A DNA stretch of 64,000 nt, from IMG/VR virus record IMGVR_UViG_3300001282_000006, one strand, 5' to 3'. The notes under the pieces were generated by a model, which saw only the letters and a list, made by a program, of their open reading frames with translations, was not told the DNA's origin and did not search any database. Shown piece after piece: positions 3,093 to 63,636 of the stretch. The translations under genes were made by a program, and so were the position numbers. Every line of letters starts with the position of its first letter. Position 1 is the first letter of the stretch. This DNA is from a virus. Lineage: Duplodnaviria; Heunggongvirae; Uroviricota; Caudoviricetes.

Positions 3093-4052
3093 ATGATTAA
3101 AAGATATTTAGAGTTTATAAAAGAAAGTCAAATTAATGGATTCAATTCACTAGGTGAGTGGGTTGAATCTTTAATATCTGATGATTATGTTAGAAACATA
3201 GTAGCTCGTTATACAAAAGATTCTGATGCTTCTATTGATTTATCAAATGCTATTAATATCTTAGATGATAATACTAAAGATGAAATTAAATATCAAATTG
3301 ATAATTATTTACAAAATGGTATTGAAGAAAAAGAACCTGAGTTCTTAGTTTCAACTGATTTAGAAGAATTAACTGAATCTGAGATTACAGTTGCTGGTAA
3401 AGGTATATTTATTTCTTTCTTAAAATCTTTAACCAGTTTAGGTCAAAAAGAAGTGGGTCCAAATTGGTCTAAATCTTCAGATGACTTTTTATTATACTAT
3501 TACTATCCTAATTTACAATCAGAACATGTAAAACAAGTATTTTCAAGATTCAAATCTTTAAGTAGATACTTAGACCATGTTGATTATCAAAAAAATGAAG
3601 TTGATTTATACTTTGGTATCAAATGTGATGGTAATTTTGAATATGGTTTACATTATGATGTACCAACACCAATTGGTCAATTTAAGTTGAATCAATCTGT
3701 TATTAAATGGATTTGTCAAATTGAATCTAAGTCTGCTCATTCATTAAAGAAAGAATTAGTTAATTTAACTTTAGCAGATGTAATTACATTAGGTAAAATT
3801 AAATTAGATATGAAAGAATTCAATCCGGGATATCACGAATCAAAAGATGTTGTGAAAATTCAAGATAAGATTATTTCATTTGGATATAAAGGTTTAGGTA
3901 AATGGGACAACGGTAAATTTGATGAAGGTGAGTTTATGAATATTAAAAATAACTTCACTACTTGGGTAATGACTAAGAGATGGGGTGGTAAAGTTTTAAT
4001 AAGTGTTAAACCAACATCATATTATGTTTACATACATATAAAATTAAAGTAA
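3093..4052 (+). CDS. Hypothetical protein with a T4-CTS-like N-terminal leader (MIKRYLEFIKE|S).
   Basis: 319-aa ORF. TTTAATATATAAC motif lies immediately upstream of the ATG. Confidence 0.7.
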   Translation: MIKRYLEFIKESQINGFNSLGEWVESLISDDYVRNIVARYTKDSDASIDLSNAINILDDNTKDEIKYQIDNYLQNGIEEKEPEFLVSTDLEELTESEITVAGKGIFISFLKSLTSLGQKEVGPNWSKSSDDFLLYYYYPNLQSEHVKQVFSRFKSLSRYLDHVDYQKNEVDLYFGIKCDGNFEYGLHYDVPTPIGQFKLNQSVIKWICQIESKSAHSLKKELVNLTLADVITLGKIKLDMKEFNPGYHESKDVVKIQDKIISFGYKGLGKWDNGKFDEGEFMNIKNNFTTWVMTKRWGGKVLISVKPTSYYVYIHIKLK

Positions 4053-4054
4053 TC

Positions 4055-4798
4055 ATGAAAATTAAAAACTATAAACTATTTTTAGAGTCAAATAATTTTG
4101 ACTTTGATTTTTTAGCAAACATTGGTAAAATGAAACAAGCTATTATTAAAATAGTTCAACTTCATGAGAAAAAGTGTTATGGTGATATTAAACTATCATC
4201 TTATGAAAGATTTAAAGCTTCATTAAATGATTTAATTGATAGTGCTGTTAAAGGTGAATATACAATTACTGAAGATTACTTATCTGTAATTAATTTATTT
4301 GAAAAAGAAGTTTATGGAAAAGATTTACTTTCTTCTTATGAAGAATCTATTTTTAGTCATTTAGATGATTTGATATCTTGTTTTAATAGTTTATTAGATA
4401 ATGAGGAAAAAGACGAAGAAGATATTATGAGATTAGGAAAAGATGCTGACCATATCTTAAATAAGATGGATGAGACTTGGATTTATACTTCTGATGAATC
4501 TAATGTTAGTATTTCTGATATTGATATAAGTGATATTGATGATGCTATTGCTGGTTTAGACGATAGATTGTCAAAAGAAACAGATGACATGTGGACTTCT
4601 GAAGAAGAATTTGAAAAGGATATTGAATCATATATTGGAAAGAAAATGGATGATTTTGATTACTCGGATAAACTACAAGCTTATCAATATATTGAGAACA
4701 AAGAATGGGTGAAAAATATACTTGAAGGTGGTTCAGAAAAAGATAAAGACTTTGTTACTAACTTTCTTTCTCAAATGAAAGATATGTTTGGCATATAA
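4055..4798 (+). CDS. Hypothetical acidic protein with a CTS-like leader (MKIKNYKLFLE|S).
   Basis: 247-aa ORF rich in D/E. Confidence 0.7.
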   Translation: MKIKNYKLFLESNNFDFDFLANIGKMKQAIIKIVQLHEKKCYGDIKLSSYERFKASLNDLIDSAVKGEYTITEDYLSVINLFEKEVYGKDLLSSYEESIFSHLDDLISCFNSLLDNEEKDEEDIMRLGKDADHILNKMDETWIYTSDESNVSISDIDISDIDDAIAGLDDRLSKETDDMWTSEEEFEKDIESYIGKKMDDFDYSDKLQAYQYIENKEWVKNILEGGSEKDKDFVTNFLSQMKDMFGI

Positions 4799-4813
4799 AT
4801 TAATATATACATT

Positions 4814-5125
4814 ATGAAATACTTAAAGAAATATAACGAAAATCAAGAACAACAAGATCCTGAGTTTGCTATTGCTAAAATTAAGGGAAGATATCCTGAG
4901 GATATGGTTCAAGATATGTTAAATGATGAGATTAATCAGTGGAAGCCAGATGAAGAAGATCCAGAATTCTATTCAAGAACTGGAAACGGAGAAGCAGAAG
5001 ATGTTATCATCAATCAAATGATTGGTTGGTTTGATAAAAAGTATTATGCTTTATCTGATGAAAACTTTGAGAAAGTTAAACAATTAATACTAAAAGAGTA
5101 TGAGTTCTTAAACTTTAACTACTAA
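4814..5125 (+). CDS. Hypothetical protein (MKYLKKYNE..., weak CTS-like start).
   Basis: 103-aa ORF. TATAAATTAATATATACATT sits directly upstream of the ATG. Confidence 0.6.
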   Translation: MKYLKKYNENQEQQDPEFAIAKIKGRYPEDMVQDMLNDEINQWKPDEEDPEFYSRTGNGEAEDVIINQMIGWFDKKYYALSDENFEKVKQLILKEYEFLNFNY

Positions 5126-5130
5126 ACAAA

Positions 5131-5170
5131 AAATGAAAACTTTTCTATAACAAGAAAAGTTTTTTGTTTT
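5131..5170 (+). terminator. Rho-independent terminator-like hairpin.
   Basis: gaaaacttttct-ataaca-agaaaagtttt followed by a T-run. Confidence 0.5.
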
Positions 5171-5503
5171 ATGAAAACACCAAATTTATTTCCCGTAGCT
5201 ATGAAAATTGCTGCTCAAACTATTGGACAAGATTTAGTCAGTGTTCAACCAATGGCTGGACCAGGTGGAATGACTAAAGAAGAAAGAGAAAGAATTGAAG
5301 CCGAGATTAAACAAAAGAATCGTGATGGTAAAATCGATTCATTAATTGAAGGATCAGAATATAAAGAAGAAAAATTAGAAGAACATCCTGATTATAAACC
5401 AGGTAGTGGTTGTCAATTATTTTATATGGATTATACTTACAATTCTCCAACTCACAAAAAAACAAGAAGAAGTAAAAAGAAAAAGAAAGATGGGAGTATT
5501 TAA
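5171..5503 (+). CDS. Hypothetical protein.
   Basis: 110-aa ORF with a Lys-rich C-terminus. Confidence 0.5.
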   Translation: MKTPNLFPVAMKIAAQTIGQDLVSVQPMAGPGGMTKEERERIEAEIKQKNRDGKIDSLIEGSEYKEEKLEEHPDYKPGSGCQLFYMDYTYNSPTHKKTRRSKKKKKDGSI

Positions 5504-5675: not shown

Positions 5676-5705
5676 TGAAAACATGTTAGAGTAATATATA
5701 CTCTA

Positions 5706-6753: not shown

Positions 6754-8502
6754 ATGCTTATTAGTGAATTAGGAATTAGAGGATTCAAAAGTTATGGTAA
6801 TAACGAACAAGTCTTAAAATTAAATACGGAAAAAGGAGAATTGATTCTTCTTGTTGGAAATAACGGAGCAGGTAAATCATCTTTGTTAGATTCCTTCGAT
6901 TACACACTTTATGGTAAAGTTAGAGGTCGTAAAAAGAAATGGGCCACTTTATCCACACTCCCAAACAGAATTAACGGTGAACTACTTAATAGAATTAAAT
7001 TTAATTCTTTAGGTACTGACGTTGAAATAAAACGAGGTATATCACCTGGTGTGTTAGAACTTACAGAAAACGGTGTTGTCAATGAAAGAGCCGGTAAAGG
7101 TAATGTTGATGAAAAGATTGAAAAGTATATCGGTATGGATATTGAAACTTTCAAATCATTTATCTCAATGTCTATTAATGATTTCAAAAACTTTATCTCT
7201 TTATCAAATGAAGAAAAACAACTTCTTTTAGATAAGTTGTTCAACTTAGAAGTTATCAATATCTTAAATGGTATCTTAAAAGATATCGCTAAGAATAATA
7301 AAGTCAGAGCCGCTTCTTTTGATGGTGAAATTAGAACTTTAGATGACTCAATTTCATCTATTCAAAAGTCTATTGATAAAGCTATTGAAAGGCAAAAAGA
7401 AGAAGCTAGACTAGCTTTAGAAAGAGAGAAAGAAGATATTCAAGCCGAGATTGATAGAATCACAGGTGAGATGAATTCTAGAAAAGATGATTATAAATCT
7501 TTGAAAGAAAAGATGGATAAAATCAAAGAAAAGGATTCAGAATTATCTGATGAGATGGACAAAGAAAAAAGACAACTTATCAATTGTCAAAATGATATTA
7601 AGAATGTTCAAAGAGAATTAGACTTATATGATTCTGGTAAATGTCCTACTTGTAAAACAGATTTTGATTCGGTTCACTTTGCTAATTTAAGAACGGCTTT
7701 AGAAGAAAAGAAATTAGGTTTTGAAAATATCAAATCTGAAATTGAAGCTAATGTTACTAAGATAAGAGAAAGACAAGTTAAGTTAAAAGGTTTATCTGAA
7801 ACAACTACAACAACTTTTAATGATTTAAGTTATCTATTGAAAAACTATAAATCAGAGATTGATAAATTAGTTCAAAAGAAAGCTTCTCAAACTGTTCCGG
7901 TTAATACTACTCCTTCTATTAATATTCAAGAGTTTCAAAATACAATTGAAGAACTTGAAGAAAAGAAAGTAGTTAGTTCTGATAACATCACAGTTTGTAA
8001 AGAGAAAGACCTTTATTATAAAGAGTTGAATCGTATCTTTGGTGAAGATGGTGTTAAGAAGTCTATAATCTCTGGCATTATTAAACCAATCAATCACTTT
8101 ATTGCTGAGAATATTAAAAAGATGAGTTTGCCATTTGAAGTAAGATTAGATGAAACTTTTACAGCTGAGATTAAACAATTAGGTTCTCAAATTGAACACG
8201 ATTCTTTATCAACTGGTGAAACTAAAAAAGTTAATATTAGTATCTTAATTGCTTACTTGAAGTTAATTAGAACTAAGCGTCATATCAATATACTCTTCTT
8301 GGATGAGGTCTTCTCTTCTATTGATATCGAAGGTATAGATTCTATTTTGGCTCTCTTAAAATCGTTCGCAAACGATTATAACATCAATATCTTTGTTGTC
8401 CATCATGCTATTTTGAACCAAGAGATGTTTGATAGAATACTGAAGATTAATAAAGAAGTGTTTTCTTCGATAGAAGAGGTTGATCTGAGTTATGGAAGTT
8501 GA
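6754..8502 (+). CDS. sbcC: SbcC / Rad50-like recombination ATPase (T4 gp46-like).
   Basis: Walker A motif LLVGNNGAGKSS. Long central coiled coil with a CPTCKTDF zinc hook. C-terminal LFLDEVFSSID. Confidence 0.8.
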   Translation: MLISELGIRGFKSYGNNEQVLKLNTEKGELILLVGNNGAGKSSLLDSFDYTLYGKVRGRKKKWATLSTLPNRINGELLNRIKFNSLGTDVEIKRGISPGVLELTENGVVNERAGKGNVDEKIEKYIGMDIETFKSFISMSINDFKNFISLSNEEKQLLLDKLFNLEVINILNGILKDIAKNNKVRAASFDGEIRTLDDSISSIQKSIDKAIERQKEEARLALEREKEDIQAEIDRITGEMNSRKDDYKSLKEKMDKIKEKDSELSDEMDKEKRQLINCQNDIKNVQRELDLYDSGKCPTCKTDFDSVHFANLRTALEEKKLGFENIKSEIEANVTKIRERQVKLKGLSETTTTTFNDLSYLLKNYKSEIDKLVQKKASQTVPVNTTPSINIQEFQNTIEELEEKKVVSSDNITVCKEKDLYYKELNRIFGEDGVKKSIISGIIKPINHFIAENIKKMSLPFEVRLDETFTAEIKQLGSQIEHDSLSTGETKKVNISILIAYLKLIRTKRHINILFLDEVFSSIDIEGIDSILALLKSFANDYNINIFVVHHAILNQEMFDRILKINKEVFSSIEEVDLSYGS

Positions 8503-8782
8503 TAATTTGTTAGAATTATATCTTAACGCTAAGAAAGATAAGAAAGAAGCTATTAGTCTTCAAAAATATGAGAAAGCGGCTATGGCTAGAGATACAGAAC
8601 GCAAACATTCAGTTGATTTGTATGAGTTATTGAGTGGTGATAAAGTTGAAGCTTTTGATTATAATAAATTTGATAAACTTATTGATGATTACTGTATGAG
8701 TAAGTATGAAGTAAGTATTTATGATACACACTCATTAAAACAAATTATTAGACAGAAAAGACTAAAAGATTTAGGAATATAA
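8492..8782 (+). CDS. Hypothetical protein.
   Basis: 96-aa ORF. Confidence 0.5.
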   Translation: MEVDNLLELYLNAKKDKKEAISLQKYEKAAMARDTERKHSVDLYELLSGDKVEAFDYNKFDKLIDDYCMSKYEVSIYDTHSLKQIIRQKRLKDLGI

Positions 8783-8816
8783 AAAAAGCCTCTGATTTCT
8801 CAGAGGCTTTTTTTTA
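8781..8816. terminator. Bidirectional rho-independent terminator between convergent genes.
   Basis: aaaaaaagcctctga-tttc-tcagaggctttttttt. Confidence 0.75.
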
Positions 8817-8825
8817 AATATATTT

Positions 8826-10370
8826 TTAACAATCGTAACAATCTACTTGTCCTCGACCATAACAATTACCACATTCTACTGTTTCATCTCCATCACATTC
8901 ACGACATGTTCTTTTACCATCTCCATCACAATCTGAACAATTCACTTTACCAGATCCATCACAATCTGAACATTCTTCCTCTTCGCCATCAGAGCCTTCA
9001 ACATTACCAGATCCATCACAATTTGAACAATCTTCTTTACCATCACCATCACAACTATTACACTCAATAGTTCCTTCACCATCACAATTACCACAAGAAA
9101 CTGTACCTTCACCGTCACAGTCATAACATTCAGTTCTACCAGAACCATTACAAGTATCACAAGGTCTAACATAGTCACCACCTGTATCTTCTAAGAAGTA
9201 ACAACCACCAGTATCCTCATTTGAAATAGTTTTTGTTCTTGAGTTAAAATATTTAAGTGTATCTAAATAAGGAAAATTATCCATACTAGCATCAGTTAAA
9301 TTAACAGTTAAATCTAAATTAACTCTACTTCCATCTGGAGCTATAGCTTGACCACTATCTGAACTATTATTATGTTCTTTATAGTACCAACCATTTTCTT
9401 TAGCATAATCTCTGAATAGTTCAACATCAGAAGGATTTACTGTATAGATTCTATCTAAATATTCTTTACCATCTTTTAATTTCCAAAGTAATGCTCTACC
9501 GATAATTTTTTCAGTATCATCCATTGATTTGTAAATAACTAAACCAACTTCTGGATTAGCAGTATAAACTTCTAACCAACTATCTGGAGCACCAGCCATA
9601 CAAGACGAACCTAAAGTACCATTTCTTTCAAAGTAGTTTTCATTATGATACCAATGAGCAATATCGGAACCTCTAGCAACTTCAATATAAGAGAATTTAT
9701 CATTCATCTTATCAATAGTAGCTTTATATAAATTCACAAATTGTTCAAAATCTTTATCAGTAAATTCAGCACCAGCCGCTTTTAAAAGCGCTCTCATTGC
9801 TCTACCTACTTTAATCTCTTGTCTACTTGATGACCAAACTTTTTTAAGTTTTTCATCAACAGATCTTAATTTCTCAACATTATAAACGCCTTGACCAGCA
9901 TCATTTCCAGATAAATCTTTAAATTTAACCCAAGCATAAGATTTACCACTTGTTTCAGATGTTACTTTAGCAACAACTTCACCTAAATCTCTTGAATTAG
10001 GTTTATAAGGTTCAGAACCTTCTTCAAATGTATAACCTAGTTTTTCAAATAAGCCATTATTAGACTCTTTGTGTTTTAACCAACCTCCACCAGAACCTGT
10101 AAATCTAACCACTTCTTTAGTATCACCTAAAATCTCTTGTGCTTTTCTATCAGGAGTAAAAGAAATTGTATCATTTTTAGAAAATTCTATATCAAGATAA
10201 TTAGCTTGAACAGTTAAGTCATTATTTTCAACACCTAAAATGGCTTTAGCCATTGGATGGTCAATTTTAGCCATTGCCTTTCTGAAGTTATCAGAGAAAA
10301 CGACATTTGATTCTAGTATAAACTCTAGATTTTCTTTTATAAAGTCTGAATATTTTTTAATCATTTTCAA
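8826..10370 (-). CDS. CTS-like-leader protein with about ten C-terminal DnaJ-type CxxCxGxG zinc-finger repeats.
   Basis: N-terminus MKMIKKYSDFIKENLEFILES. C-terminus CDTCNGSGRTECYDCDGEGTVSCGNCDGEGT...CSDCDGSGKVNCSDCDGDGKRTCRECDGDETVECGNCYGRG. Confidence 0.8.
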   Translation of the reverse strand: MKMIKKYSDFIKENLEFILESNVVFSDNFRKAMAKIDHPMAKAILGVENNDLTVQANYLDIEFSKNDTISFTPDRKAQEILGDTKEVVRFTGSGGGWLKHKESNNGLFEKLGYTFEEGSEPYKPNSRDLGEVVAKVTSETSGKSYAWVKFKDLSGNDAGQGVYNVEKLRSVDEKLKKVWSSSRQEIKVGRAMRALLKAAGAEFTDKDFEQFVNLYKATIDKMNDKFSYIEVARGSDIAHWYHNENYFERNGTLGSSCMAGAPDSWLEVYTANPEVGLVIYKSMDDTEKIIGRALLWKLKDGKEYLDRIYTVNPSDVELFRDYAKENGWYYKEHNNSSDSGQAIAPDGSRVNLDLTVNLTDASMDNFPYLDTLKYFNSRTKTISNEDTGGCYFLEDTGGDYVRPCDTCNGSGRTECYDCDGEGTVSCGNCDGEGTIECNSCDGDGKEDCSNCDGSGNVEGSDGEEEECSDCDGSGKVNCSDCDGDGKRTCRECDGDETVECGNCYGRGQVDCYDC

Positions 10371-10394: not shown

Positions 10395-10406
10395 GTATAT
10401 ATTAAA
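10395..10406 (-). promoter_or_regulatory. TTTAATATATAC motif upstream of the minus-strand gene 8826..10370.
   Basis: Plus-strand gtatatattaaa. The same motif recurs upstream of many genes. Confidence 0.35.
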
Positions 10407-22020: not shown

Positions 22021-22470
22021 ATGAATATAAAAGTAAAGGACTGGGGTAATTTTATAAAAGAATCTAAAATGGAGAAGAAAGTCATAATGAACATGTTTAT
22101 TTGTAGACATGAGTCTCCTATAGGCTCATCAAATACAAACCCAAATTGGTCAAAATGTGTTGAAGTTTTACATTCTATAAAATTTCCAACAACTGTTGAA
22201 ATATCAGGTGCTCATCATAGAGGGTTAGCAGTTCAGGTACTCTTAGATACAAATCTTGAAGAGTCAATTTCTTTTTGTAGAGGTTTATTAGATAAATTTC
22301 TACCTGAGGTTCCATTAATAGTAATATCAGAAGTCAATGTTGAGATTAGAAACACCCCAATAGGTCACTGGTTTGATGATGATTTAGTTCAACCAGGTAG
22401 ATATTTTGATAAGTTAGTAAGTGAGGGAAAAACTGGTTTAGTAATTCATGATGAAAACACACCTAAATAA
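22021..22470 (+). CDS. Hypothetical protein.
   Basis: ATG at 22021. The track ORF 21994 uses an alternative start. Confidence 0.55.
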   Translation: MNIKVKDWGNFIKESKMEKKVIMNMFICRHESPIGSSNTNPNWSKCVEVLHSIKFPTTVEISGAHHRGLAVQVLLDTNLEESISFCRGLLDKFLPEVPLIVISEVNVEIRNTPIGHWFDDDLVQPGRYFDKLVSEGKTGLVIHDENTPK

Positions 22471-22534: not shown

Positions 22535-23203
22535 TTAAATATTTGGATTAGGTTTGTTAGGTCTTTGATTAGGATTTACTACAGCACCTTTATTTGTCTT
22601 AGGTTCAGCAAAATATAAAGCAAAATTTGTTTCTTTATCTTCAGTACTTAATAACATATTAGGATATTTTGATTTGATAGTATCAATTAATTTATTTCCT
22701 AACTTATTTACAAATTTTACTACTTCTGGGTTTTTCTGCATATCGTATAAGTTAGCAATTTTACCAGATTCTCCAAAAATAGCATCTTTTATATGTGACC
22801 AATTTTTAGAAATATCCTGTTGATAAGTTCCAGGGTATTTTTCATAATCACCAGGTTTCTTTTCATCCATCATCTTTTTAATTATCTCTTTATTTTCAGG
22901 TGCTGTTATAAATTGATAAGCAACAGCATAAACAGGCAGAAACAAGCCAATTTGTTCAACATCTGAAAATTGATGAATTTCTACAGTACCACCTTTACCA
23001 TTCAAATATTTTGAATCTTTTGTACCAACTAAAGAATCACCACCTCTATATTTTGATTTTTCGCTATTTTCTTTTATTTCAACTTCATACCCTTCACTTT
23101 TTACAAGAGAGTATAATTGTTTAGCTATAGATTTTAATTCCAGAAAATCTTCATTAATAGATTCTGAGTCTGAGAAGTTTTCAAATAATTTAAGATGTTT
23201 CAT
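22535..23203 (-). CDS. Hypothetical protein with a CTS-like leader (MKHLKLFE|NF).
   Basis: 222-aa ORF. TTTAATATATAC motif 21 nt upstream. Confidence 0.7.
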   Translation of the reverse strand: MKHLKLFENFSDSESINEDFLELKSIAKQLYSLVKSEGYEVEIKENSEKSKYRGGDSLVGTKDSKYLNGKGGTVEIHQFSDVEQIGLFLPVYAVAYQFITAPENKEIIKKMMDEKKPGDYEKYPGTYQQDISKNWSHIKDAIFGESGKIANLYDMQKNPEVVKFVNKLGNKLIDTIKSKYPNMLLSTEDKETNFALYFAEPKTNKGAVVNPNQRPNKPNPNI

Positions 23204-23252
23204 AATTATGATTTTTTATTAATGTATATATTAAATTTAATATTCGATTTTT

Positions 23253-24966: not shown

Positions 24967-24986
24967 AGTCCAGATTATCTGGACTT
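24967..24986. terminator. Hairpin overlapping the stop of 24975..26090, probably a terminator.
   Basis: gtccagattatctggac flanked by T/A runs. Confidence 0.4.
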
Positions 24987-26090
24987 TTTAAATTCTTTTT
25001 TATCATTAGAAATATAGAATTTATCAAAATTATAGTATTTCTTATACACTTCTTTGATTTTCTTCATATTAACTTTATCTAAAATATCATAAACTGACCA
25101 ACCCTCTGGATTGATATATTGATTAACATTCTTATATCTAAGAATCTCATCTTTAGCCATTCTTACTTTGTAGTAATCTTTAACTAAGTCAAATCTTTCT
25201 TTTGTTAAATATTTATCAGGGTTTGTAATCACCTCTTTAACAGCGTCAACTACACCATTGTAATTTTTATTAGATGTTTGAGTTGAGATAGTATTAATAC
25301 CTTGATTGTTAACTCTTGACTGATAACAATGTACATAATAAACTAATCCTTTTTTCTCTCTAATTTCTTGATAAAGTGGAGATTTTAATCCTAATGACAA
25401 CATAGCATTGATAAAGTGAACATAAGCAAAATCTTCCTCAATTATTGGAGAAAGAATAGCAATAGATGTTTTGTCTTTGAACTCATTACTTAATTCTAAA
25501 TCAACATCATTTTCACCAAACTCAATAGTTTTTGTAATATCTCTCTTAGCAAAATCAATAGTATTGTTTTTGTAAGGTTTGTTTTTAGATACGTTAATAA
25601 TCTTAGTAGGCTTAGCATATTGAAGTTCAAAGAAATTCAAACAATCCATATACTTTAGTTTTTCTAAATCTTCTTTTAATCCAATTGGATCATAATCACC
25701 AAATAATTTACGAGAAAGATTTAACATATGTGTTTGAGTTTGGTCATTGAAACAATCCATGTATTCTTCAAGTACAATGTTTCTTTCATTTTCAAATTGT
25801 TCTTTAGTAACATTGAATTCACCAAGTAAGTCCATAAACTCACCTTTCCACTTATTTACTTTTTCATCTAAGCCAGTTAGATAAAAAACAATTTCATTTG
25901 AACTTGTGTAAGCATTCCAATCAATGCCGTCTTTGTCAAAATCTTCTTGAAGATGATCAAAGTTTTTACACATTAAATGTTCCATTAAGTGAGAGATACC
26001 AAACCAACCTTTTTTCTCAAGATTAGTTGAACCTTCATATACAACGTAGAAACCAGATAATTCAGTTTCAGATTTAAGATTTATTATCAT
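24975..26090 (-). CDS. M16 (pitrilysin / insulinase) family metallopeptidase-like protein.
   Basis: Inverted zinc motif HxxEH (GISHLMEHLMCK) near the N-terminus. Confidence 0.55.
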   Translation of the reverse strand: MIINLKSETELSGFYVVYEGSTNLEKKGWFGISHLMEHLMCKNFDHLQEDFDKDGIDWNAYTSSNEIVFYLTGLDEKVNKWKGEFMDLLGEFNVTKEQFENERNIVLEEYMDCFNDQTQTHMLNLSRKLFGDYDPIGLKEDLEKLKYMDCLNFFELQYAKPTKIINVSKNKPYKNNTIDFAKRDITKTIEFGENDVDLELSNEFKDKTSIAILSPIIEEDFAYVHFINAMLSLGLKSPLYQEIREKKGLVYYVHCYQSRVNNQGINTISTQTSNKNYNGVVDAVKEVITNPDKYLTKERFDLVKDYYKVRMAKDEILRYKNVNQYINPEGWSVYDILDKVNMKKIKEVYKKYYNFDKFYISNDKKEFKKSR

Positions 26091-26136: not shown

Positions 26137-27102
26137 TTATAAGTCAACTTTGAATTTGCCCCAAATGACAACATCACCATCAATAACTTCAATATCAGTT
26201 CCAGCCCATTCTAAATATTTAACTATACCAGATGATACATCTTCTGATGTTGTTGTATCTGGAAAAGCTTTATTAATAGTATCAGCCATTTCATTTGTGT
26301 ATATAATCATTCTATCATCTTCAACTAAAGTAAAATCTTCAATTTGAATTGATGATCTTAAAAAAGAAGTTAAATTTTTTATCAGATTATCACCTAAATC
26401 GGATCTTCTAACTGGAACTTTATTAATTACACCATTACGCATAACACTTGATGATATCATCTCACTCCAGTTATCTTTAATATCTTGTTGTAAATAAACT
26501 AAAGCTTCTTCTCTAAATTGTTCAACTGTATAACCTATTTGATCTAACATTAATTGACCATATTTAGTTTGATGATAACCATATTTATATCTGATGTACA
26601 TCTCATCACCTTCAGCATAAGAGGCCCATCCATCTCCACCTAATGAAATAATATCATTAGCATTTAATCCTAATTTTTTAGCAGTAAAATAAAGATAAAC
26701 ATCACAGTGACCATTTTGACTTCCTATTTGTCCATAACTATTAAACCAACCATCAAAATCTTTATCAACTAATTTATTAGCTTCTTCGCTGAATAAGTTT
26801 TTAATTGATTCAAAGTCCCAACCTTTTTTATTAAGCAAATTTTGCATTTCTTGATAATCAGCTTCAGGGTTAGCATCTTTCCTTTTACACATATCAGAAA
26901 ACCAACCAGGATAAAAATCAGACATAGCAATTACTGACTCTTCAAAATCATCTCTTAACTCTTGTATAGTTTCTTTACCAGTACCTGGTACTTTTAAAAT
27001 AACTCTACTTATAATAGTGTCTAATTCTTGCTTAGTTAATTTTGGCTTAGCAACTAGAGACTCATTAATAAAATCATTATACTTTTTTAAGTTCTTCTTC
27101 AT
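26137..27102 (-). CDS. Hypothetical protein with a CTS-like leader (MKKNLKKYNDFINE|S).
   Basis: 321-aa ORF. Confidence 0.7.
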   Translation of the reverse strand: MKKNLKKYNDFINESLVAKPKLTKQELDTIISRVILKVPGTGKETIQELRDDFEESVIAMSDFYPGWFSDMCKRKDANPEADYQEMQNLLNKKGWDFESIKNLFSEEANKLVDKDFDGWFNSYGQIGSQNGHCDVYLYFTAKKLGLNANDIISLGGDGWASYAEGDEMYIRYKYGYHQTKYGQLMLDQIGYTVEQFREEALVYLQQDIKDNWSEMISSSVMRNGVINKVPVRRSDLGDNLIKNLTSFLRSSIQIEDFTLVEDDRMIIYTNEMADTINKAFPDTTTSEDVSSGIVKYLEWAGTDIEVIDGDVVIWGKFKVDL

Positions 27103-27250
27103 CTTCTTCTTCTTCTTGTTCTTCTATTTCAACTTCATTAATTAACTCATCTGCGCACCATTCGTGGTCATATCCAACATCACTGTCGTTGTAAAAATGT
27201 AATTTAGTAGTCATAAAATATTAGAATTTTTTTTGTAAAGTATATATTAA

Positions 27251-34578: not shown

Positions 34579-34584
34579 AAAATT

Positions 34585-34598
34585 AATATATATACCAA
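34585..34598 (+). promoter_or_regulatory. TTAATATATATAC motif upstream of 34619.
   Basis: ttaatatatatacc. Confidence 0.3.
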
Positions 34599-34618: not shown

Positions 34619-35089
34619 ATGAAAAATCTAAAAACATTTGAAGCTTTTAACAATCCTTATATTGATAGAAGAGTTGTTGCTAGTAGACCTCCTAAAGAGA
34701 TTGCTTACTTAAAAGAACCTGTTGAAATCAGAATTGATGTTGAGAAAGTGAATCACGCTGGTGATAGACAATTTAGACATGGTGCTTTAGAAAATCAAAT
34801 TAAAGACGAAGATATTATTGATACAATTGAATTAGCAATTGAAGAATTGACTATTGCTCTCATGCAAGATAAATTTAATATCTATCAATTAGAAGATAAT
34901 TATCCAACTAAAGGTGTCAAAGAAGGTGAGCCTAATAGATTTGTAATTAAGAATAAAACAAATAACTTAAATGTTGTTTGTCAATTAGTACCAGGTGATA
35001 ATGAATTTAGATTAACTGTTATTACGGTGATGGTTAAACCAGATTTTAGAGCTTACTCTGGTCAATATGTAATTGAAGTAAAATCATAA
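34619..35089 (+). CDS. Hypothetical protein with a CTS-like leader (MKNLKTFEAF).
   Basis: ATG at 34619. The track start 34607 is a TTG. Confidence 0.6.
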   Translation: MKNLKTFEAFNNPYIDRRVVASRPPKEIAYLKEPVEIRIDVEKVNHAGDRQFRHGALENQIKDEDIIDTIELAIEELTIALMQDKFNIYQLEDNYPTKGVKEGEPNRFVIKNKTNNLNVVCQLVPGDNEFRLTVITVMVKPDFRAYSGQYVIEVKS

Positions 35090-51483: not shown

Positions 51484-51846
51484 ATGGCTCGTAAATTAAA
51501 AGATATTAAACCTATATTAGAAGATTTAAATAAATCTTTGACAGAAGAAGAAATACTCAAACATCTTATTCTGTTAGTTAAAGGTTTTGATCCAAATCAA
51601 TATAGAGAAGTTATATACAGTAATCCATATTACAAGGCTTTAATACCAGATATTCAAAAAGATATAATTGAAGAGTTGGAAAAAATTAGTAAATCTATAC
51701 AAAATGAGATAGATACAATTGAATCTGATTTAAAAAAAGCCACTATAACATCAGCTAAAGAATTAAAAAAATTGAAAAGTGATTGTTTATCTTTGATATA
51801 TGAAATTGATGAGCGTAAAAAAGAAATTGATTCCTTATCTAAGTAA
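51484..51846 (+). CDS. Hypothetical protein.
   Basis: ATG at 51484 (MARKLKD...). Confidence 0.5.
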   Translation: MARKLKDIKPILEDLNKSLTEEEILKHLILLVKGFDPNQYREVIYSNPYYKALIPDIQKDIIEELEKISKSIQNEIDTIESDLKKATITSAKELKKLKSDCLSLIYEIDERKKEIDSLSK

Positions 51847-53532
51847 AGAATCAATATATCTTTCAATTTGTTTAGCCTTTTTAATATCTTCTAAAACTTC
51901 ATTTCTTCTTCTATCATTATCACATTCATTAATATAATATCTGACATCATTGGTATAATGAAATTCGTTTAGAATATTTCTAGTATAACCAAATGAAAAT
52001 CCTCTTTCACTAGCTAAATTTCTAATAGACCTTAATTTAACCATAATCATTCCCAAATCTTCAATAGTTTGAATGTTTTGTGAAAGTAAATAATTTTTAA
52101 TTTTCTTACCAATTTCTATAAATATTTTAAATATTTCTTTAAGTGGTTCTATATCACTATTATTAACTTCTTTAAGAGACTCATTATATTGTTTTGTATA
52201 ATCTTCAGAATATGAATTCAAACTTTTAAAAGAACTAATTATACTTGAGAGATAGTAATCTCTATCATTTCCATCAGTAGACTTCATCATATCATAAATA
52301 TAACCAGACATACTATCTAAACTATCAAATCCTGGTCTGCCTTTATAAATAGAAATAAAAGCTAAATCACCACAAACAGATTTTATTACCAACTTTTGAA
52401 GATTTTTAAGTTCTTTGATATCTTTATCAATACCCATTTTACCAACAATCGCAGTTAAATATCTTTCAATGTTTGCTCTTTTAATCTGAGAATCGGTCAT
52501 TAATTTAGTAGCACCTTCTCTTGATTCTTCTCTATTTGTTTTAATTTGATTAACTGGAACTTTAACTGATTTAAGTATATCATCAAGCATTAAAACAATT
52601 GAAAAGTCGGATTTTTCAACTAATGTATAATCATCTATTGACCAAGATGTATCACCCCATTCTCTTAAACCATAACTACTATTTAATGGTAAATTGAAGT
52701 CAAGAGGGCTTTCTTTTTCTTCTTCTTTTACTTCTTCTCTTTTAACACCTTCTATATGTAAAGGTTCTTCTGATGGTGTATAAATGTGTAATTTATTATG
52801 GTCAGAACCTGGAGAACTAACTGAACCCATATGCCAAGATCTTGAAAATGGTAAATAACCATCTTCATTTTCTTCACCATCTTCATCTCTCCAATTTCTC
52901 CAACTTTCACCATCTATTTGACCATCTGGTTCACCGCCTCCAGCAACACTTTGAATTCCATGAAGATCACCATATCCATCTCTCCAAATTTTAGCTAAAC
53001 CCATTCTTGACATATCATCTTCATCATCAGAGAATATACCAATTACTAACTGTTTGTGTGTCAAGTCTTCATAATTTTTAAGTGGTGTGAGTTTACCGGT
53101 TTTAATATTTAATCGATTTTTTATATAATCTAATTCATTATTGCTAAAATGTGAATTTCTATTACGACTTCTATTTCTGTTATTATTATATTTGATATAT
53201 GATTTAAAATCCATACTAGTATTACCAGTGCCGGTAAATCCTAAATATCCTTCATCCATTGAAAACCAAAACTTTAAACAATAAATTTCTTTATAATTTT
53301 CAACTCTGTCTACATTTCTAAGTTTAAGAGCTTGATTTCTATTAAGATATTTAACATCTTTATCACTTATCTTATCAATAGGAATATCAAATTGGGTAAT
53401 CAATCTTTTTAATTTATCCTTAAATCTTTCTTTAGAATTAGTATCTACTTTTTTAGCTAAGAACTTCATCATTTTTGATAAAGCATTAGATTCAAAAGCT
53501 TCAAATAACATTAAGTGTTTCATGTTTGACAT
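51835..53532 (-). CDS. Hypothetical protein with a CTS-like leader (MSNMKHLMLFE|AFE|S).
   Basis: 565-aa ORF. AATATATACATT sits directly upstream of the ATG. Confidence 0.7.
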   Translation of the reverse strand: MSNMKHLMLFEAFESNALSKMMKFLAKKVDTNSKERFKDKLKRLITQFDIPIDKISDKDVKYLNRNQALKLRNVDRVENYKEIYCLKFWFSMDEGYLGFTGTGNTSMDFKSYIKYNNNRNRSRNRNSHFSNNELDYIKNRLNIKTGKLTPLKNYEDLTHKQLVIGIFSDDEDDMSRMGLAKIWRDGYGDLHGIQSVAGGGEPDGQIDGESWRNWRDEDGEENEDGYLPFSRSWHMGSVSSPGSDHNKLHIYTPSEEPLHIEGVKREEVKEEEKESPLDFNLPLNSSYGLREWGDTSWSIDDYTLVEKSDFSIVLMLDDILKSVKVPVNQIKTNREESREGATKLMTDSQIKRANIERYLTAIVGKMGIDKDIKELKNLQKLVIKSVCGDLAFISIYKGRPGFDSLDSMSGYIYDMMKSTDGNDRDYYLSSIISSFKSLNSYSEDYTKQYNESLKEVNNSDIEPLKEIFKIFIEIGKKIKNYLLSQNIQTIEDLGMIMVKLRSIRNLASERGFSFGYTRNILNEFHYTNDVRYYINECDNDRRRNEVLEDIKKAKQIERYIDSLLR

Positions 53533-53539
53533 AATGTAT

Positions 53540-54018
53540 ATATTAAAATTTATTTGGTAAATTGAAACTTTCTTTCTACATTTGTATAAGAATTAACCAA
53601 GAGTCGTTAAGACAAGAGCTAAGAAATTAGCGTGTCGAAAGATTTCACATTAATATATGATAAAACCGTGTGAGTCTTAACGAAATTATGGTAGTAAGTA
53701 GCTGTTAAATAAGTTAACACCCTTGTTAAAGCCAGTGAACTACCTTGTAAATATAACTATATAATAATAGTAAGGGTGTAGATATCGAAGTCGTGTTGGT
53801 GATAGATGTCTCAAATAACTAATGATTAAACCCAACTCAAAGAAGATTTTAAACGAGCAGAATGGTAACACTGCTCAACCGAGGCGAAAGCATATTAAAA
53901 GGTAATCCTAAGTGATGAGGTCACTAAAAGTCAAGGTAAGGTTCTCGGATTTCGACCATACTTGACAGACGTTCCACCAATCTTCTTTTTTAATTGTAAA
54001 TAAGTAAATAAAAATAAA
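53540..54018. other. 480-bp ORF-free region that is GC-richer than its surroundings. It is a candidate structured non-coding RNA or regulatory region (tmRNA partner of SmpB, or an origin).
   Basis: No ORF longer than 28 aa in a genome otherwise packed end to end. Local GC is clearly above background. Confidence 0.25.
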
Positions 54019-57422: not shown

Positions 57423-57427
57423 CAACC

Positions 57428-57513: not shown

Positions 57514-57515
57514 AT

Positions 57516-57601
57516 GGAGAGTAAACTAGTCAGGGTACTAGCACCGCCTGCTAAGCGAGTGGCACAATAAAATGTGTGAGTTTCGAATACTCTGCTCTCC
57601 G
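57516..57601 (+). tRNA. Class-II tRNA, probably Ser(GCU). The anticodon stem is weak.
   Basis: GGAGAGT..CTGCTAA loop, variable hairpin CACAATAAAATGTG, TTCGAAT T-loop, GCTCTCC-G. Confidence 0.45.
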
Positions 57602-57613
57602 CAAAAGATAACT

Positions 57614-57700
57614 GGAGAGTTGTCCGAGTGGTTTATGGAGCACGCTTGGAAAGCGTGTGTACTTGAAAGAGTACCGAGGGTTCGAATCCCTCACTCTCCG
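57614..57700 (+). tRNA. tRNA-Ser(GGA), class II.
   Basis: GGAGAGT-T-GTCCGAGTGGTTTATGGAGCA-CACGC-TTGGAAA-GCGTG-TGTACTTGAAAGAGTACC-GAGGG-TTCGAAT-CCCTC-ACTCTCC-G. Confidence 0.7.
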
Positions 57701-57717
57701 CATAAAAATTAAGAATT

Positions 57718-59852: not shown

Positions 59853-59926
59853 TTGTAGTAATTTTTTTTATTACTCTATATATTATTTTGTCAAATGGCT
59901 TTTATTATTTATCTTTGTTCCGAATT

Positions 59927-60500: not shown

Positions 60501-61571
60501 ATGAAGATAAACGAAAAATTCCTTGAAAGCTATTTGAATAGCAACTCACCGACCGGATTCGAATACGAATTAGGTGGTCAGAAACTTTGGATGGAAAACA
60601 TTGCTAAGTTTGCTGATAAAGTAGAAATTGATAACTATGGTACCGCTTACGGTATTATGGGTAATATGGACTCTGAGTTCAAAGTAGTAATTGAGGCACA
60701 CGCTGACGAAATCAGTTGGTTTGTGAATTATATCGATTCAAAAGGTTACATAAAAGTAATCAAAAATGGTGGCTCTGATGCTACTATTGCGCCTTCAATG
60801 AGGGTTACTCTTTGGGGTGAAAATGGACCAGTAGATGGTATCTTTGGTCACCCAGCAATTCACATTCACTATCGTAAAAAAGAATCTGATTTAGATTCAA
60901 TCTTTATTGATATTGGTGCTTCTTCAAAAGAAGATGTTGAGAATATGGGTATTAAAGTTGGTACAGTTGTTACTTTCAAAGACCAATTCATGAAGTTAGG
61001 AAAAGATTACTACACAGGTCGTGCTTTAGATAATCGCATTGGTGGATTTATGATTGCTGAGGTAGCAAGACGATTAAAAGAAAAAGGTAAAGAGTTACCA
61101 TACAAATTGTATGTTGTCAATTCTGTACAAGAAGAAATTGGTTTAAGAGGTGCTCAAATGATTACTCAAAGTATCAAACCAAATGTAGCAATCATCACTG
61201 ATGTTTGTCACGAAACTTCTTCTCCTTGTTACACTGCTTCTAAAGAAGGTGAACACGTTGCTGGTCAAGGTGGTGTTATCACAAGAGCACCTGCTGTTCA
61301 TAACAAATTGAGAAAGTTAGTAATTGATACTGCTAATAAAAAGAAAATTCCTTTTCAATTGGCGGCTTCATCAACTTCAACTGGAACTGATACAGATGCT
61401 TTTGCTTATTCAAATGGTGGTGTTCCTTCTGTTTTGATTTCACTTCCATTGAAATACATGCACACTACAGTGGAAACCGCACATCGTTCAGATATTGAGA
61501 ATATTATTAAATTGATTTACAATACTCTTCTAAACATTGAAGAAAATCACAATTTTAAATACAATATTTAG
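60501..61571 (+). CDS. M42-family aminopeptidase (FrvX / glutamyl-aminopeptidase-like).
   Basis: SPTGFEYELGGQKLWMENIAKFADKVEIDNYGTAYGIMG...VIEAHADEISWFVNYIDSKGYIKV matches M42 along its length. Confidence 0.75.
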   Translation: MKINEKFLESYLNSNSPTGFEYELGGQKLWMENIAKFADKVEIDNYGTAYGIMGNMDSEFKVVIEAHADEISWFVNYIDSKGYIKVIKNGGSDATIAPSMRVTLWGENGPVDGIFGHPAIHIHYRKKESDLDSIFIDIGASSKEDVENMGIKVGTVVTFKDQFMKLGKDYYTGRALDNRIGGFMIAEVARRLKEKGKELPYKLYVVNSVQEEIGLRGAQMITQSIKPNVAIITDVCHETSSPCYTASKEGEHVAGQGGVITRAPAVHNKLRKLVIDTANKKKIPFQLAASSTSTGTDTDAFAYSNGGVPSVLISLPLKYMHTTVETAHRSDIENIIKLIYNTLLNIEENHNFKYNI

Positions 61572-61705: not shown

Positions 61706-62215
61706 TTATATTTCTACTTTAGTTATTTCAAAGTAACCACGATGGTCTTTCATACCTACTTCAAATCCTTTCTCAAATTTACAATAGTATCCACCAATCC
61801 AAACTAATCCTACATCTTTATAATCTTCAGTAGCGTATCTTCTATCAGTGCTGGTTATTTCATTATCATCTAATTTTAATTCAGTACCAAATATTCTTGA
61901 AGTATGAACATATATCTCTGAATTTTTAGGATCGTATGATAACCAATGGTCATCTTGTTTACCAGTAAATGATTTACCATTAAATTCGTTTCTAGTTACT
62001 TCAAATGGAGTTGTAGCAACTTTAACAAGATTAAATCTATTATCATTTCTTTTTAAAGTAAATTCACTACCCATAGCCAAAAATGATGGTTTTCCTTCAG
62101 AATTTTTTATATCTTTTAATCTTCTCTCAAATTCAGCTGTTGGTTTTACCGTTATAGAAAACGGATGCTTATTATCTTTATCTGTAAAGTTTTCAAATAG
62201 TTTTAAGTATTTCAT
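61706..62215 (-). CDS. CTS-like-leader protein (MKYLKLFE|NF), paralogue of 62243..62707.
   Basis: ATG at 62215. Shared C-terminal YCKFEKGFEVGMKDHRGYFEITKV compared with CKFDEGVTPGTRDHRGYFEIVSV. Confidence 0.7.
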   Translation of the reverse strand: MKYLKLFENFTDKDNKHPFSITVKPTAEFERRLKDIKNSEGKPSFLAMGSEFTLKRNDNRFNLVKVATTPFEVTRNEFNGKSFTGKQDDHWLSYDPKNSEIYVHTSRIFGTELKLDDNEITSTDRRYATEDYKDVGLVWIGGYYCKFEKGFEVGMKDHRGYFEITKVEI

Positions 62216-62242
62216 AGTCAAGTTTTTTTTTATTATTATTAT

Positions 62243-62707
62243 TTATCTAACTGATACAATTTCAAAATATCCTCTGTGATCTCTTGTACCTGGAGTCACA
62301 CCTTCGTCAAATTTACAATACCAGTTATTAGTTATATTTTTCAAAGAATTAAAACTATTTGGTATATCAATACCTTGGTCCGAGTGTTCGCTAGACTGAA
62401 TTATATTTATTTCATCACCACTATATACAATATAATACCATATGGTATTTTTTCTGTCTTCTTTAGAAAACACTTTAAATAATGGGTAATAATAACCTTT
62501 TCTCATTTCAAGTCCGCCATCACCATAATTATGGTGACCTTCTCCTTCAAGATTTTTTAAGTTAGAAGCGAATCCATGTGCTTGATAAACTTTATCACCT
62601 TCAGTTCCTTTCCAATATTGGTTAATAAAACCATCACCATTAAATTTAACAGTTATTATTTCAGGTTTTTCTTGAGTGAAGTTTTCAAATAGTTTTAAGT
62701 ATTTCAT
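62243..62707 (-). CDS. CTS-like-leader protein (MKYLKLFE|NF), paralogue of 61706..62215.
   Basis: ATG at 62707. The 36 nt spanning the 5' UTR and the first codons are identical to the paralogue. Confidence 0.65.
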   Translation of the reverse strand: MKYLKLFENFTQEKPEIITVKFNGDGFINQYWKGTEGDKVYQAHGFASNLKNLEGEGHHNYGDGGLEMRKGYYYPLFKVFSKEDRKNTIWYYIVYSGDEINIIQSSEHSDQGIDIPNSFNSLKNITNNWYCKFDEGVTPGTRDHRGYFEIVSVR

Positions 62708-62837
62708 AGTCAAGCTTTTTTTATTATTGTATATATTATTTTTTTTAACCAATTTTTCACACAATTTAAGAATTATATCACCATGTATCAATCTTGATTT
62801 TTGTATAAATTCTTCTTGTGTTAATTTTTTAGGCATT

Positions 62838-63200
62838 TTAATATTTAGGTAGTTTCATATCTGTTGTGATTTCAATCTTGAAACCAAATCCAGTATCATC
62901 ATCTGAACTATATTTAACTTCTGAGTCATAACCTCTATTACCATCAAATGTTGTTGGTTTAGGACCATTCATTCTGGCTCTTCTTCTCATTTCTTCTTCT
63001 TTTCTTTTAGATTCTTCTTGGGCAACCATTTGTTCAAATGTTAAACCATTATCAACTTGTTTTGGTTCTTCTCTAGTTGAGAATTGTTGAGGTTGATGTC
63101 CATATTTACGAAGTAACTGTTCTGCCTCCCAACTATCAATATTAGCTGGTTGAGTTTGTTCTTCTTGATTTTGTATAATTCTTACTTCTGGTCTATTCAT
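62838..63200 (-). CDS. Hypothetical protein.
   Basis: 120-aa ORF. Confidence 0.55.
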   Translation of the reverse strand: MNRPEVRIIQNQEEQTQPANIDSWEAEQLLRKYGHQPQQFSTREEPKQVDNGLTFEQMVAQEESKRKEEEMRRRARMNGPKPTTFDGNRGYDSEVKYSSDDDTGFGFKIEITTDMKLPKY

Positions 63201-63204
63201 AATA

Positions 63205-63636
63205 TTAAATTATTTTATCTAAGTATATTTCGTTACCATATCTATCTAATTCCCAACCCTCTATTGGATTATTCTGTAAATATCTATAGTAAACTTTTGT
63301 TCTTTGAGTGATAGCGTCACTTTCATTTCCTTTACCTAAACCTTTTATAGTGATTTCAGAACACCAATCATTTTTACTAATAAAGTCTGATATAATTCCG
63401 TTAAATATAGTTTTCAAAAGACTGAATATGTTTGTTGGAACTAATTCAAATGTCCAGTTATCACCAGTTTTAACTCTATAAACAACTTCAGCTTCACCTT
63501 GTGGTTTTCTATCTATTTCAACTCTAAAATCATTTTGACCATCTGAGAAATAATAATAGTAGGTAGCACCATCTAAACCACCATCTTCAAACGGATAAAA
63601 TTCAATAGATTCAAGTATAGATTTAAGATGTTTCAT
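63205..63636 (-). CDS. Hypothetical protein with a CTS-like leader (MKHLKSILE|SIE|F).
   Basis: 143-aa ORF. TTAATATATACCTTA sits directly upstream of the ATG. Confidence 0.7.
   Translation of the reverse strand: MKHLKSILESIEFYPFEDGGLDGATYYYYFSDGQNDFRVEIDRKPQGEAEVVYRVKTGDNWTFELVPTNIFSLLKTIFNGIISDFISKNDWCSEITIKGLGKGNESDAITQRTKVYYRYLQNNPIEGWELDRYGNEIYLDKII

Follow-up and report, generated by a model that had tools for sequence, protein, structure and literature searches.

A T4-like N-terminal leader on many dissimilar proteins of uncultured megaphages: a candidate capsid-targeting system

The 64,000-nucleotide (nt) stretch of tailed-phage DNA analysed here (IMG/VR record IMGVR_UViG_3300001282_000006; the window hereafter means this whole stretch, which has a GC content of 29%) encodes a set of proteins that begin with a similar short leader peptide. 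The original prediction listed eleven of them, regarded them as otherwise unrelated and likened their leader to the capsid-targeting sequence (CTS) of the phage T4 internal proteins. The closest records to the window are uncultured megaphages of 635-735 kb (LR745206, LR756502, LR756504 and LR756501/LR756503), and contigs from freshwater-lake metagenomes encode proteins identical to window proteins. LR745206, an uncultured megaphage of 635 kb, is syntenic with the window: homologs of 44 of the 79 window open reading frames (ORFs) are found there, with their order kept, at ~290-362 kb of that genome. LR745206 was fetched entire and 942 ORFs were called in it.

The leader spans 10-16 residues and follows the consensus M-(0-3 residues)-[LI]-K-x-[YF]-x-[DEN]-F-[I..]-x-E, with an N-terminal core of [LI]-K-x-[YF]-x-[DEN]-F. 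It starts 1-4 residues past the methionine in all window members and occurs as two sub-types, A (MIKKYxDFIKE/S) and B (MK[YH]LKxFExF), the stroke marking a candidate cleavage position. All eleven N-termini read as predicted and most start positions held, small corrections being needed for the 8826, 62243 and 61706 genes (genes are named by their lower coordinate). Scores below come from two position matrices, one built leave-one-out on [LI]-K-x-[YF]-x-[DEN]-F-x and a second, of 12 columns, retrained on LR745206 leaders. The leader genes of the window are as follows.

3093..4052, plus strand: type A leader protein of 319 amino acids (aa), MIKRYLEFIKE/S; 11.9 bits leave-one-out, 14.8 bits retrained.
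4055..4798, plus strand: borderline leader protein of 247 aa, MKIKNYKLFLE/S; 0.65 bits leave-one-out, 9.7 bits retrained, about the internal background maximum.
4814..5125, plus strand: probable leader protein of 103 aa, MKYLKKYNE/N; 6.6 bits leave-one-out, 1.6 bits retrained.
8826..10364, minus strand: leader protein of 512 aa, MIKKYSDFIKE/NLEFILE/S, with ten C-terminal CxxCxGxG zinc-finger repeats.
22535..23203, minus strand: type B leader protein of 222 aa, MKHLKLFE/NF...SINE/D; 19.5 bits retrained.
26137..27102, minus strand: leader protein of 321 aa, MKKNLKKYNDFINE/S; 21.5 bits; directly upstream of an M16 peptidase gene.
34619..35089, plus strand: leader protein of 156 aa, MKNLKTFEAF; 21.5 bits retrained.
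51835..53532, minus strand: leader protein of 562-565 aa, M(SNM)KHLMLFE/AFE/S; 16.7 bits retrained.
61706..62215, minus strand: leader protein of 169 aa, MKYLKLFE/NF; 17.4 bits; start at 62215; paralog of 62243-62707.
62243..62707, minus strand: leader protein of 154 aa, MKYLKLFE/NF; 19.1 bits; start at 62707.
63205..63636, minus strand: weak or doubtful member of 143 aa, MKHLKSILE/S; 1.9 bits leave-one-out, 3.2 bits retrained.
22021..22470, plus strand: possible extra member of 149 aa, MNIKVKDWGNFIKE/S; poor matrix score, membership uncertain.

With the leave-one-out matrix, eight of the eleven listed proteins (3093, 8826, 22535, 26137, 34619, 51835, 61706 and 62243) scored 9.9-16.5 bits (per-8-mer p <= 3e-4), a level reached by none of the 68 other N-termini in the window. 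The retrained matrix gave these eight 14.8-21.5 bits, against 9.9 bits for the best internal 12-mer (n=13,656). At a threshold of >=9 bits, 10 of 79 window N-termini matched, compared with a mean of 0.28 in residue-shuffled N-termini (maximum 3, 500 shuffles), and internal methionine contexts matched in 2 of 224 cases. The shared leader is thus highly significant in eight proteins; 4055 and 4814 are plausible members and the membership of 63205 is weak. Among the candidates, blastp found a single paralog pair, 61706/62243 (3e-8), so the description of the proteins as unrelated fails for this pair and holds for all the others. A Pfam and PHROG scan of the eleven gave nothing significant except the DnaJ/BSD2-type zinc-finger repeats of 8826, agreeing both with the predicted ten repeats on one protein and with the predicted lack of recognisable function. 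Read by eye, the leaders have no h-region and carry K, E, N or D every 1-3 positions, and so do not resemble Sec, Tat or lipoprotein signal peptides. Two further N-termini were considered and rejected: MKINEKFLES (60501) is the native N-terminus of a full-length M42 aminopeptidase, 86% conserved including the N-terminus, and MGVQLQEFIVE (23253-23525) belongs to a fragment of an FkbM-type methyltransferase.

Several of these genes keep the leader in related genomes. The LR745206 ortholog of 3093 has 65% identity and retains it (MIIKKYIKFIKEN), and 51835 has two homologs there, both with a leader (MRYISLYEAFES and MKDLKHIKLFEAFES). In the 26137 family, LK[KR]Y[NS]DF[IL]NE persists in homologs with as little as 56% overall identity, the few positions ahead of the leucine being variable. 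The 4814 protein belongs to an MK[YH]LK[KR][FY]NE[SN] subclass that is frequent in LR745206, where its ortholog begins MKYLRKYNES. The 4055 product is very acidic and no ortholog of it was found in LR745206; the ortholog of 63205 begins MKYLNSVYNLIFEG, without the motif. The 22021 gene, whose N-terminus is MNIKVKDWGNFIKES, starts after the stop of the upstream gene at 22019, and the 149-aa product is also called on public contigs. The start of 62243 was placed at 62707 because a promoter-like motif at 62729-62738 falls inside the upstream in-frame extension. That extension (62708-62836, minus strand, MPKKLTQEEFIQKSRLIHGD...) looks by eye like the remnant of a homing-endonuclease-type N-terminus.

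The 8826 family is very large, with 923 homologs, and seems to belong to the core genes of the clade. Its start is the ATG at 10364 (MIKKYSDF), as in all 120 homologs listed. The 56 homologs aligned all have Y5 and F8, and all or nearly all of them have E11, E18 and S19. The leader holds two successive candidate sites, FIKE/N and FILE/S. The central domain (residues ~181-414) has homologs in Cellulophaga phages phi38:1, phi40:1 and Calle_1-3 and in Thermus phage TSP4, and the Cellulophaga phage records match only from about residue 181 onward.

The leader is far more widespread in LR745206 than in the window. A matrix trained on the window only gave 110 matches across 192,460 positions of that proteome, and 71 of the 110 lay within 7 residues of a start methionine. 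Scoring N-termini were found at 62 of 942 first starts, against 2.8 expected (maximum 8, 300 shuffles), and at 2 of 2362 internal methionine contexts. Because residue shuffling gives 2.8 against the 62 observed, composition is not the cause of the signal. In total about 70 leader proteins, ~7% of the genes, were found; they fall into 65 BLAST-distinct families, mostly singletons plus four small clusters, and their median length is 156 aa. An aromatic residue, F or Y, holds consensus position 3 in 67 of 69 leaders, and F holds position 6 in 46 of 69. The genes form many clusters throughout the 635-kb genome, many of them tandem and distant from the head module. Synonymous codon use within the leaders equals genome-wide frequencies for all nine amino acids compared (L, K, F, Y, E, N, I, S and D), indicating that selection acts on the peptide and not on the DNA. 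At two syntenic slots the bodies are unrelated: window 34619 corresponds to a 63-aa gene beginning MKYLKLYENF, and 61706/62243 to a gene beginning MKHLKLFEELN.

The likeness to T4 was then assessed with sequences from NC_000866. The T4 internal proteins IPII and IPIII begin MKTYQEFIAE and IPI begins MKTFKEFT. With the window-only matrix, IPII and IPIII scored 9.7 bits and IPI 9.0 bits, and in six-frame translations of 60 kb of T4 these three were the sole matches whose 8-mer begins at the start methionine, in line with the resemblance originally proposed. In T4, targeting by the CTS is set by residues 4 and 7 and processing by residues 8 and 10, and the prohead protease gp21 cleaves after L/I-x-E (PMC9026906). 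The invariant Y5 and F8 of the 8826 family are the equivalents of T4 residues 4 and 7. In the window, strict [LI]-x-E falls inside the first 14 residues of eight of the eleven leaders by our own reading of the sequences.

LR745206 carries a T4-type TerL, sheath and tube, a portal (phmmer 5e-23) and a gp23-type capsid protein (Pfam 1.8e-26). A gp21-like protease, for which the original prediction looked to the rest of the genome, was also found there, in the relative and not in the window, as one gene:

LR745206 198546-200669: prohead protease-scaffold fusion of 707 aa, just upstream of the capsid gene.

A match to PHROG_207 'head maturation protease' (4e-30) is accompanied by a weak, sub-threshold one to Pfam Peptidase_S77. 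By BLASTP the protein has 28% identity to T4 gp21 (E=3e-4), in an alignment that pairs GELNHP with GEFDHP and VSSRGLG with VSSRAAG and so aligns T4 H85 and S140. Searches of LR745206 by phmmer with T4 gp21, gp22, gp24, gp67, gp68 and gp55 gave no match, and the megaphage protease domain, run by phmmer against PDB sequences, matched only spuriously. The protease (gp21) and scaffold (gp22) of T4 are encoded by separate genes. The C-terminal, scaffold-like region of the LR745206 protein consists of 11 tandem 14-residue repeats, YSEY[LI]AEN[LV]DKNI, followed by a poly-acidic stretch, and the whole protein has 30 [LI]-x-E sites (4.2 per 100 aa; proteome, 1.35). A common pattern links the repeat core Y-S-E-Y-[LI]-A-E-N, the type A leader Y-S-D-F-I-K-E-N and T4 Y-Q-E-F-I-A-E-A. 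The likeness is confined to the Y-S-[DE]-[FY]-[IL]-x-E-N core, the repeats not scoring with the full 12-column leader matrix. It suggests that leaders may co-assemble with scaffold helices and offer the same cleavage site.

Leader genes also share a DNA element with structural-type genes. A promoter-like motif, TAATATATA(C/A), lies upstream of both, and TTTAATATATAC precedes most leader genes. In the window, TAATATATA occurs <=60 nt from the start of 7 of 10 leader genes and 8 of 69 others (p=2e-4); the corresponding counts in LR745206 are 22 of 70 and 120 of 872 (p=3e-4). The sites in the window are as follows.

3080..3089, plus strand: promoter-like motif TAATATATAA, ending 3 nt before the ATG of 3093.
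4801..4810, plus strand: promoter-like motif TAATATATAC (exact), before 4814.
10395..10404, minus strand: promoter-like motif TAATATATAC, before the 8826-10364 gene.
23224..23233, minus strand: promoter-like motif TAATATATAC, before 22535-23203.
27240..27249, minus strand: promoter-like motif TAATATATAC, before a small ORF at 27214 and the 26137-27102 leader gene.
34584..34593, plus strand: promoter-like motif TAATATATAT, before 34619.
53536..53545, minus strand: promoter-like motif TAATATATAC, before 51835-53532.
62729..62738, minus strand: promoter-like motif TAATATATAC, before 62243-62707.
63641..63650, minus strand: promoter-like motif TAATATATAC (exact), before 63205-63636.
5692-5701, 19503-19512, 44747-44756, 54944-54953 and 59876-59885: further TAATATATA(C/A) sites.

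Structural-type genes with the motif in the window comprise ORFs of 1436, 1055 and 168 aa and a collagen tail fibre. In LR745206 it precedes the genes for portal, protease-scaffold, sheath, tube and tail fibre and those of large virion type; the capsid-protein and TerL genes have variants of it, and it is missing from the ligase, primase, SbcD, DnaJ, M16 and M42 genes. It resembles the T4 late promoter TATAAATA, and we infer that it may be a late or structural-gene promoter. Its spacing from the ATG in LR745206 is bimodal, at 4-6 or 17-29 nt, and the shorter distance hints at late transcripts that are leaderless or nearly so.

Structure models and distant homologs point to a modular leader. 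In AlphaFold2 (AF2) models of 8826 and 22535 it is predicted as a segment detached from, and preceding, a confident body: in 8826 a helix at residues 2-12 has pLDDT <50 and the body begins at about residue 20, and in 22535 residues 1-16 have pLDDT <50 in a model with a whole-protein pTM of 0.75. Foldseek against the PDB returned for 8826 only BSD2-type zinc-finger and weak GNAT-like matches, none significant, and for 22535 only matches with E above 0.3 and no significant fold; tblastn of 22535 against the phage collection gave no match.

The same bodies carry other leaders elsewhere. The 22535 body (NEDFLELKSIAKQLYS...) carries MKYLKLFENF in the window's clade and, in other phages, ...E[IE]xRMQxLAGI[IL]xE/S, which ends in a canonical [IL]-x-E and is absent from the window and LR745206. 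Homologs of the 22535 body and of the 34619 body alike carry this third leader type, ...RMxxLAG[IL]xxE, and on Logan contig ERR10034898 (8147 bp, 46% GC) it heads two adjacent, different genes at 1969-3590. A full HMMER search found 108 representatives of the 34619 family, whose distant members are ~125 aa long with diverse T4-like leaders of 8-13 residues (MIKLKNLLTE, MKKLKQILIE, MLKFKEFIIE, MKRFEDFIVE and MLTEAERMQQLAGLVE, for example). An [LI]-x-E motif was present in 49 of 69 members, with the Glu mostly at positions 8-14 (baseline 21%). The leader is thus portable, the same one standing on unrelated proteins and other leaders standing on the 22535 and 34619 bodies. As judged from their sequences, homologous cargo families seem to have changed tags from one huge-phage lineage to another.

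One such lineage is LR756508, a different huge phage (484 kb, 39% GC), in which the genes for the portal and a gp21-like protease enclose a 34619 homolog, itself placed among the small leader genes described next. The protease contains an intein (GELDHPD...GISSRGLGS; PHROG_207 1.8e-49) and is interrupted directly after the catalytic His motif. In 40 kb of this genome (132012-172344), at least 13 small genes share yet another leader, MK..E.KLRxxIRxEI, and flank TerL, the portal with HNH and intein-like inserts, and the gp21-like protease:

LR756508.1 132012-172344, local 8201-9880, 19944-24372 and 28451-30772: stretches of MK..E.KLRxxIRxEI leader genes.

This arrangement recalls the T4 gene order 20-67-68-21-22. 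Putative core proteins encoded nearby also contain motifs like MK..E.KLRxxIRxEI, either internally or at the C-terminal end.

Recognisable domains in the cargo are few. Pfam domains were found in only about 6 of 69 LR745206 leader proteins: an Rnl1-type RNA ligase, NUDIX, DUF6576, a Toprim-like domain, a weak MazE-like match, and a fusion of a 2H-phosphoesterase (2'-5' RNA ligase/Acb1-like) with a DEDD exonuclease, whose first domain begins at about residue 30, just after the leader MKLKKYKQFIKE/S. These domains are compatible with roles in counter-defence or RNA repair and are no proof for the window's proteins. The suggestion that the leader proteins are injected anti-defence effectors thus draws some support from these few hits and none from the window's own cargo.

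Taken together, these results make it probable, on sequence grounds, that the leader belongs to a greatly expanded capsid-targeting and propeptide system of the T4 type. None of the computational checks capable of overturning this reading did so. The leader would form an amphipathic N-terminal helix of 10-16 residues; by binding the scaffold core of the nascent prohead, it would carry the attached protein into the head. A serine prohead protease of the gp21 family would then remove it after hydrophobic-x-Glu, leaving the mature cargo in the capsid with the DNA, from where it could enter the host at infection. Leader genes would be expressed late.

Several points weigh against this interpretation. 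The strict [LI]-x-E expected at the leader's end, as the original prediction had it, was found in only 48% of LR745206 leaders (21% of other N-termini), and the 34619 leader has no canonical site. Allowing any hydrophobic residue at position P3 raises the share to 84% (36% of others), a figure partly built into the leader motif itself. The leader proteins of LR745206 are mostly acidic, with a median isoelectric point of 4.9 against 5.7 for other proteins, unlike the basic, DNA-associated internal proteins of T4. The protease and scaffold are absent from the 64-kb window, and those of the window's own genome are presumed from synteny with LR745206. The late-promoter label comes only from which genes follow the motif, and phmmer detected no gp55 homolog in LR745206. 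Membership is weak for two or three of the eleven listed proteins. Some leader proteins are enzymes (RNA ligase) of a kind not known to be packaged in T4, and about 70 cargo proteins, or 7% of genes, would be unprecedented and far beyond any characterised phage.

Some of these points also suit a different reading, which we consider unlikely without dismissing it: the leader may be a lineage-specific helix that addresses proteins to, or interacts with, something else than the prohead, such as a chaperone or assembly factor of the phage, an adaptor for degradation (N-degron), a membrane surface or a compartment within the cell, with its likeness to the T4 CTS being convergent. A short, detachable amphipathic helix on many unrelated, mostly acidic small proteins would fit such an address, as would the canonical gp21-type site in only about half of the leaders, the tandem clusters of LR745206 leader genes far from the head module and a number, ~70, that is large for capsid cargo. 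It leaves unexplained, however, the residue-by-residue coincidence with mapped T4 CTS positions, the likeness of the scaffold repeats to the leader, the promoter-like motif common to leader and structural genes, and the [LI]-x-E found at the leader-body junction under different leaders and beside the LR756508 protease.

We think it quite improbable that the leader is instead a presequence cut by a phage M16 (MPP/pitrilysin-type) metallopeptidase. Such a gene, with its HLMEH motif intact, does lie directly downstream of 26137 on the same strand, behind the motif at 27240, and its product is among the window's best-conserved proteins. This adjacency is nevertheless a single case, the equivalent leader gene is absent beside M16 in LR745206, no M16-specific cleavage determinant was identified, and the conserved Glu that ends the leader is a hallmark of the gp21 family (PMC9026906). 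Less probable again is a single old paralogous family so diverged that only its N-terminal helix is recognisable. The tandem arrays of leader genes and the few true pairs (61706/62243 and the four small LR745206 clusters) would agree with common descent, but the 65 BLAST-distinct families, the distinct Pfam folds behind the leader (RNA ligase, 2H phosphoesterase with DEDD exonuclease, NUDIX, zinc finger), the non-homologous leaders on homologous bodies in other lineages and the Cellulophaga phage matches that begin only at about residue 181 of 8826 all argue against it. Finally, a nucleotide-level signal (translation initiation, which the original prediction had named as its own possible undoing, or an operator) or an effect of AT-rich codons at gene starts, which the 29% GC genome, the mostly AT-rich codons of K, L, F, Y, N and I and the motif 4-6 nt from many ATGs might have suggested, is refuted by the codon-use comparison and by the loss of the signal on shuffling within N-termini.

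The capsid-targeting interpretation leads to a broader proposal, which we put forward tentatively: huge phages may use short, exchangeable, lineage-specific N-terminal address codes that co-evolve with scaffold and protease and load many dozens of proteins. At least three such codes were seen, namely MK[YH]LKxFExF with MIKKYxDFIKE, ...RMxxLAG[IL]xxE, and MK..E.KLRxxIRxEI. Were this true, the virion would deliver a large pre-made proteome, the packaged set would include counter-defence enzymes such as the Acb1-like phosphodiesterase-exonuclease, and the leader alone could predict, from sequence, the injected effectors of uncultured phages.

Three further genes of the window encode a capsid-protein-like product and two peptidases.

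5171-5503, plus strand: gp23-like ORF of 110 aa, resembling the N-terminal part of a gp23-type major capsid protein (PVAMKIAAQTIG...; Pfam Gp23 3e-4).
24975..26090, minus strand: M16 (pitrilysin/MPP-type) metallopeptidase, HLMEH (HxxEH) intact, 83% identity to its LR745206 ortholog.
60501-61571, plus strand: M42 glutamyl aminopeptidase, 86% identity to its LR745206 ortholog.

The two peptidases are the window proteins best conserved in LR745206. The LR745206 ortholog of the gp23-like ORF (157 aa, 291407-291880) mimics a capsid-protein propeptide (KKWAPIIESMGV). By its sequence the window product is a putative small paralog of the capsid-protein N-arm or propeptide, encoded beside three leader genes, and it could be a protease substrate, a decoy or an assembly factor. 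The window also encodes a virion structural protein carrying a Laminin_G_3 domain, a collagen-like tail fibre, SbcC, an NAD-dependent ligase, and SPFH, SIR2 and DnaJ-like proteins. It has nine tRNAs, clustered at 55901-57701. Three of the four tRNA-Lys calls (56464-56730, plus strand) span 84-85 nt, which is unusually long for tRNA-Lys and could mean an extra arm, an intron or a mis-assigned identity.

Among known systems, mitochondrial and chloroplast presequences are, like the megaphage leader, short N-terminal helices of amphipathic character that head unrelated proteins; an M16 gene stands beside one leader gene. They are, however, arginine-rich and acid-poor, whereas the leader has conserved Glu, Asp and Asn and ends in Glu, and its M16 link is that one adjacency. 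Also comparable are phiKZ, 201phi2-1 and SPN3US, large phages that package many proteins and whose gp21-related protease cuts after Glu; propeptides of the phiKZ type may hold redundant sites (PMC9026906), as does 8826 with FIKE/N and FILE/S. Their motif is S/A/G-x-E, their propeptides are long with no common short leader across unrelated proteins, and they lack recognisably T4-like capsid-protein and portal sequences. The internal proteins of T-even phages are diverse defence proteins in which only the CTS is conserved (PMC3012670). The syntenic slots of the window and LR745206 show a similar pattern, the leader being kept and the body replaced, but such proteins occupy one or two loci in T-even phages and are spread over the 635-kb genome of LR745206.

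The nearest match is the CTS of T4 IPI-IPIII. Both sequences occupy ~10 residues at the extreme N-terminus of otherwise unrelated proteins, follow M-K-x-[YF]-x-E-F-[I]-x-E with aromatics three apart and then, strictly in about half of the LR745206 leaders, [IL]-x-E, and occur, in T4 and in LR745206, alongside a gp20/gp21/gp23-type head module. They differ in that T4 has three such proteins and the megaphage clade ~70 per genome. The megaphage leader usually has 1-3 extra N-terminal residues and two sub-types, is mostly followed after the Glu by S or N in place of the A of T4, heads mostly acidic cargo, and is known from sequence alone. The CTS principle is thus already known from T4. Full-text literature searches returned no paper tying capsid targeting sequences to huge, jumbo or metagenomic phages, and what appears to be new is a consensus leader on ~7% of the genes of 600-kb megaphages, together with the different leaders that separate lineages have, in parallel, on homologous cargo. 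Should the leader prove to be a functional capsid-targeting tag, one simple motif would be enough to identify the proteins that still-uncultured megaphages package and probably inject: about ten in the window and ~70 per genome, nearly all function-less by annotation and a rich source of candidate host-takeover and anti-defence factors. The tags could also be usable as orthogonal packaging signals in engineering, and the re-tagging of homologous cargo between lineages makes the co-evolution of tag, scaffold and protease directly testable. The three-protein CTS system of T4 would then scale more than twenty-fold with capsid size.

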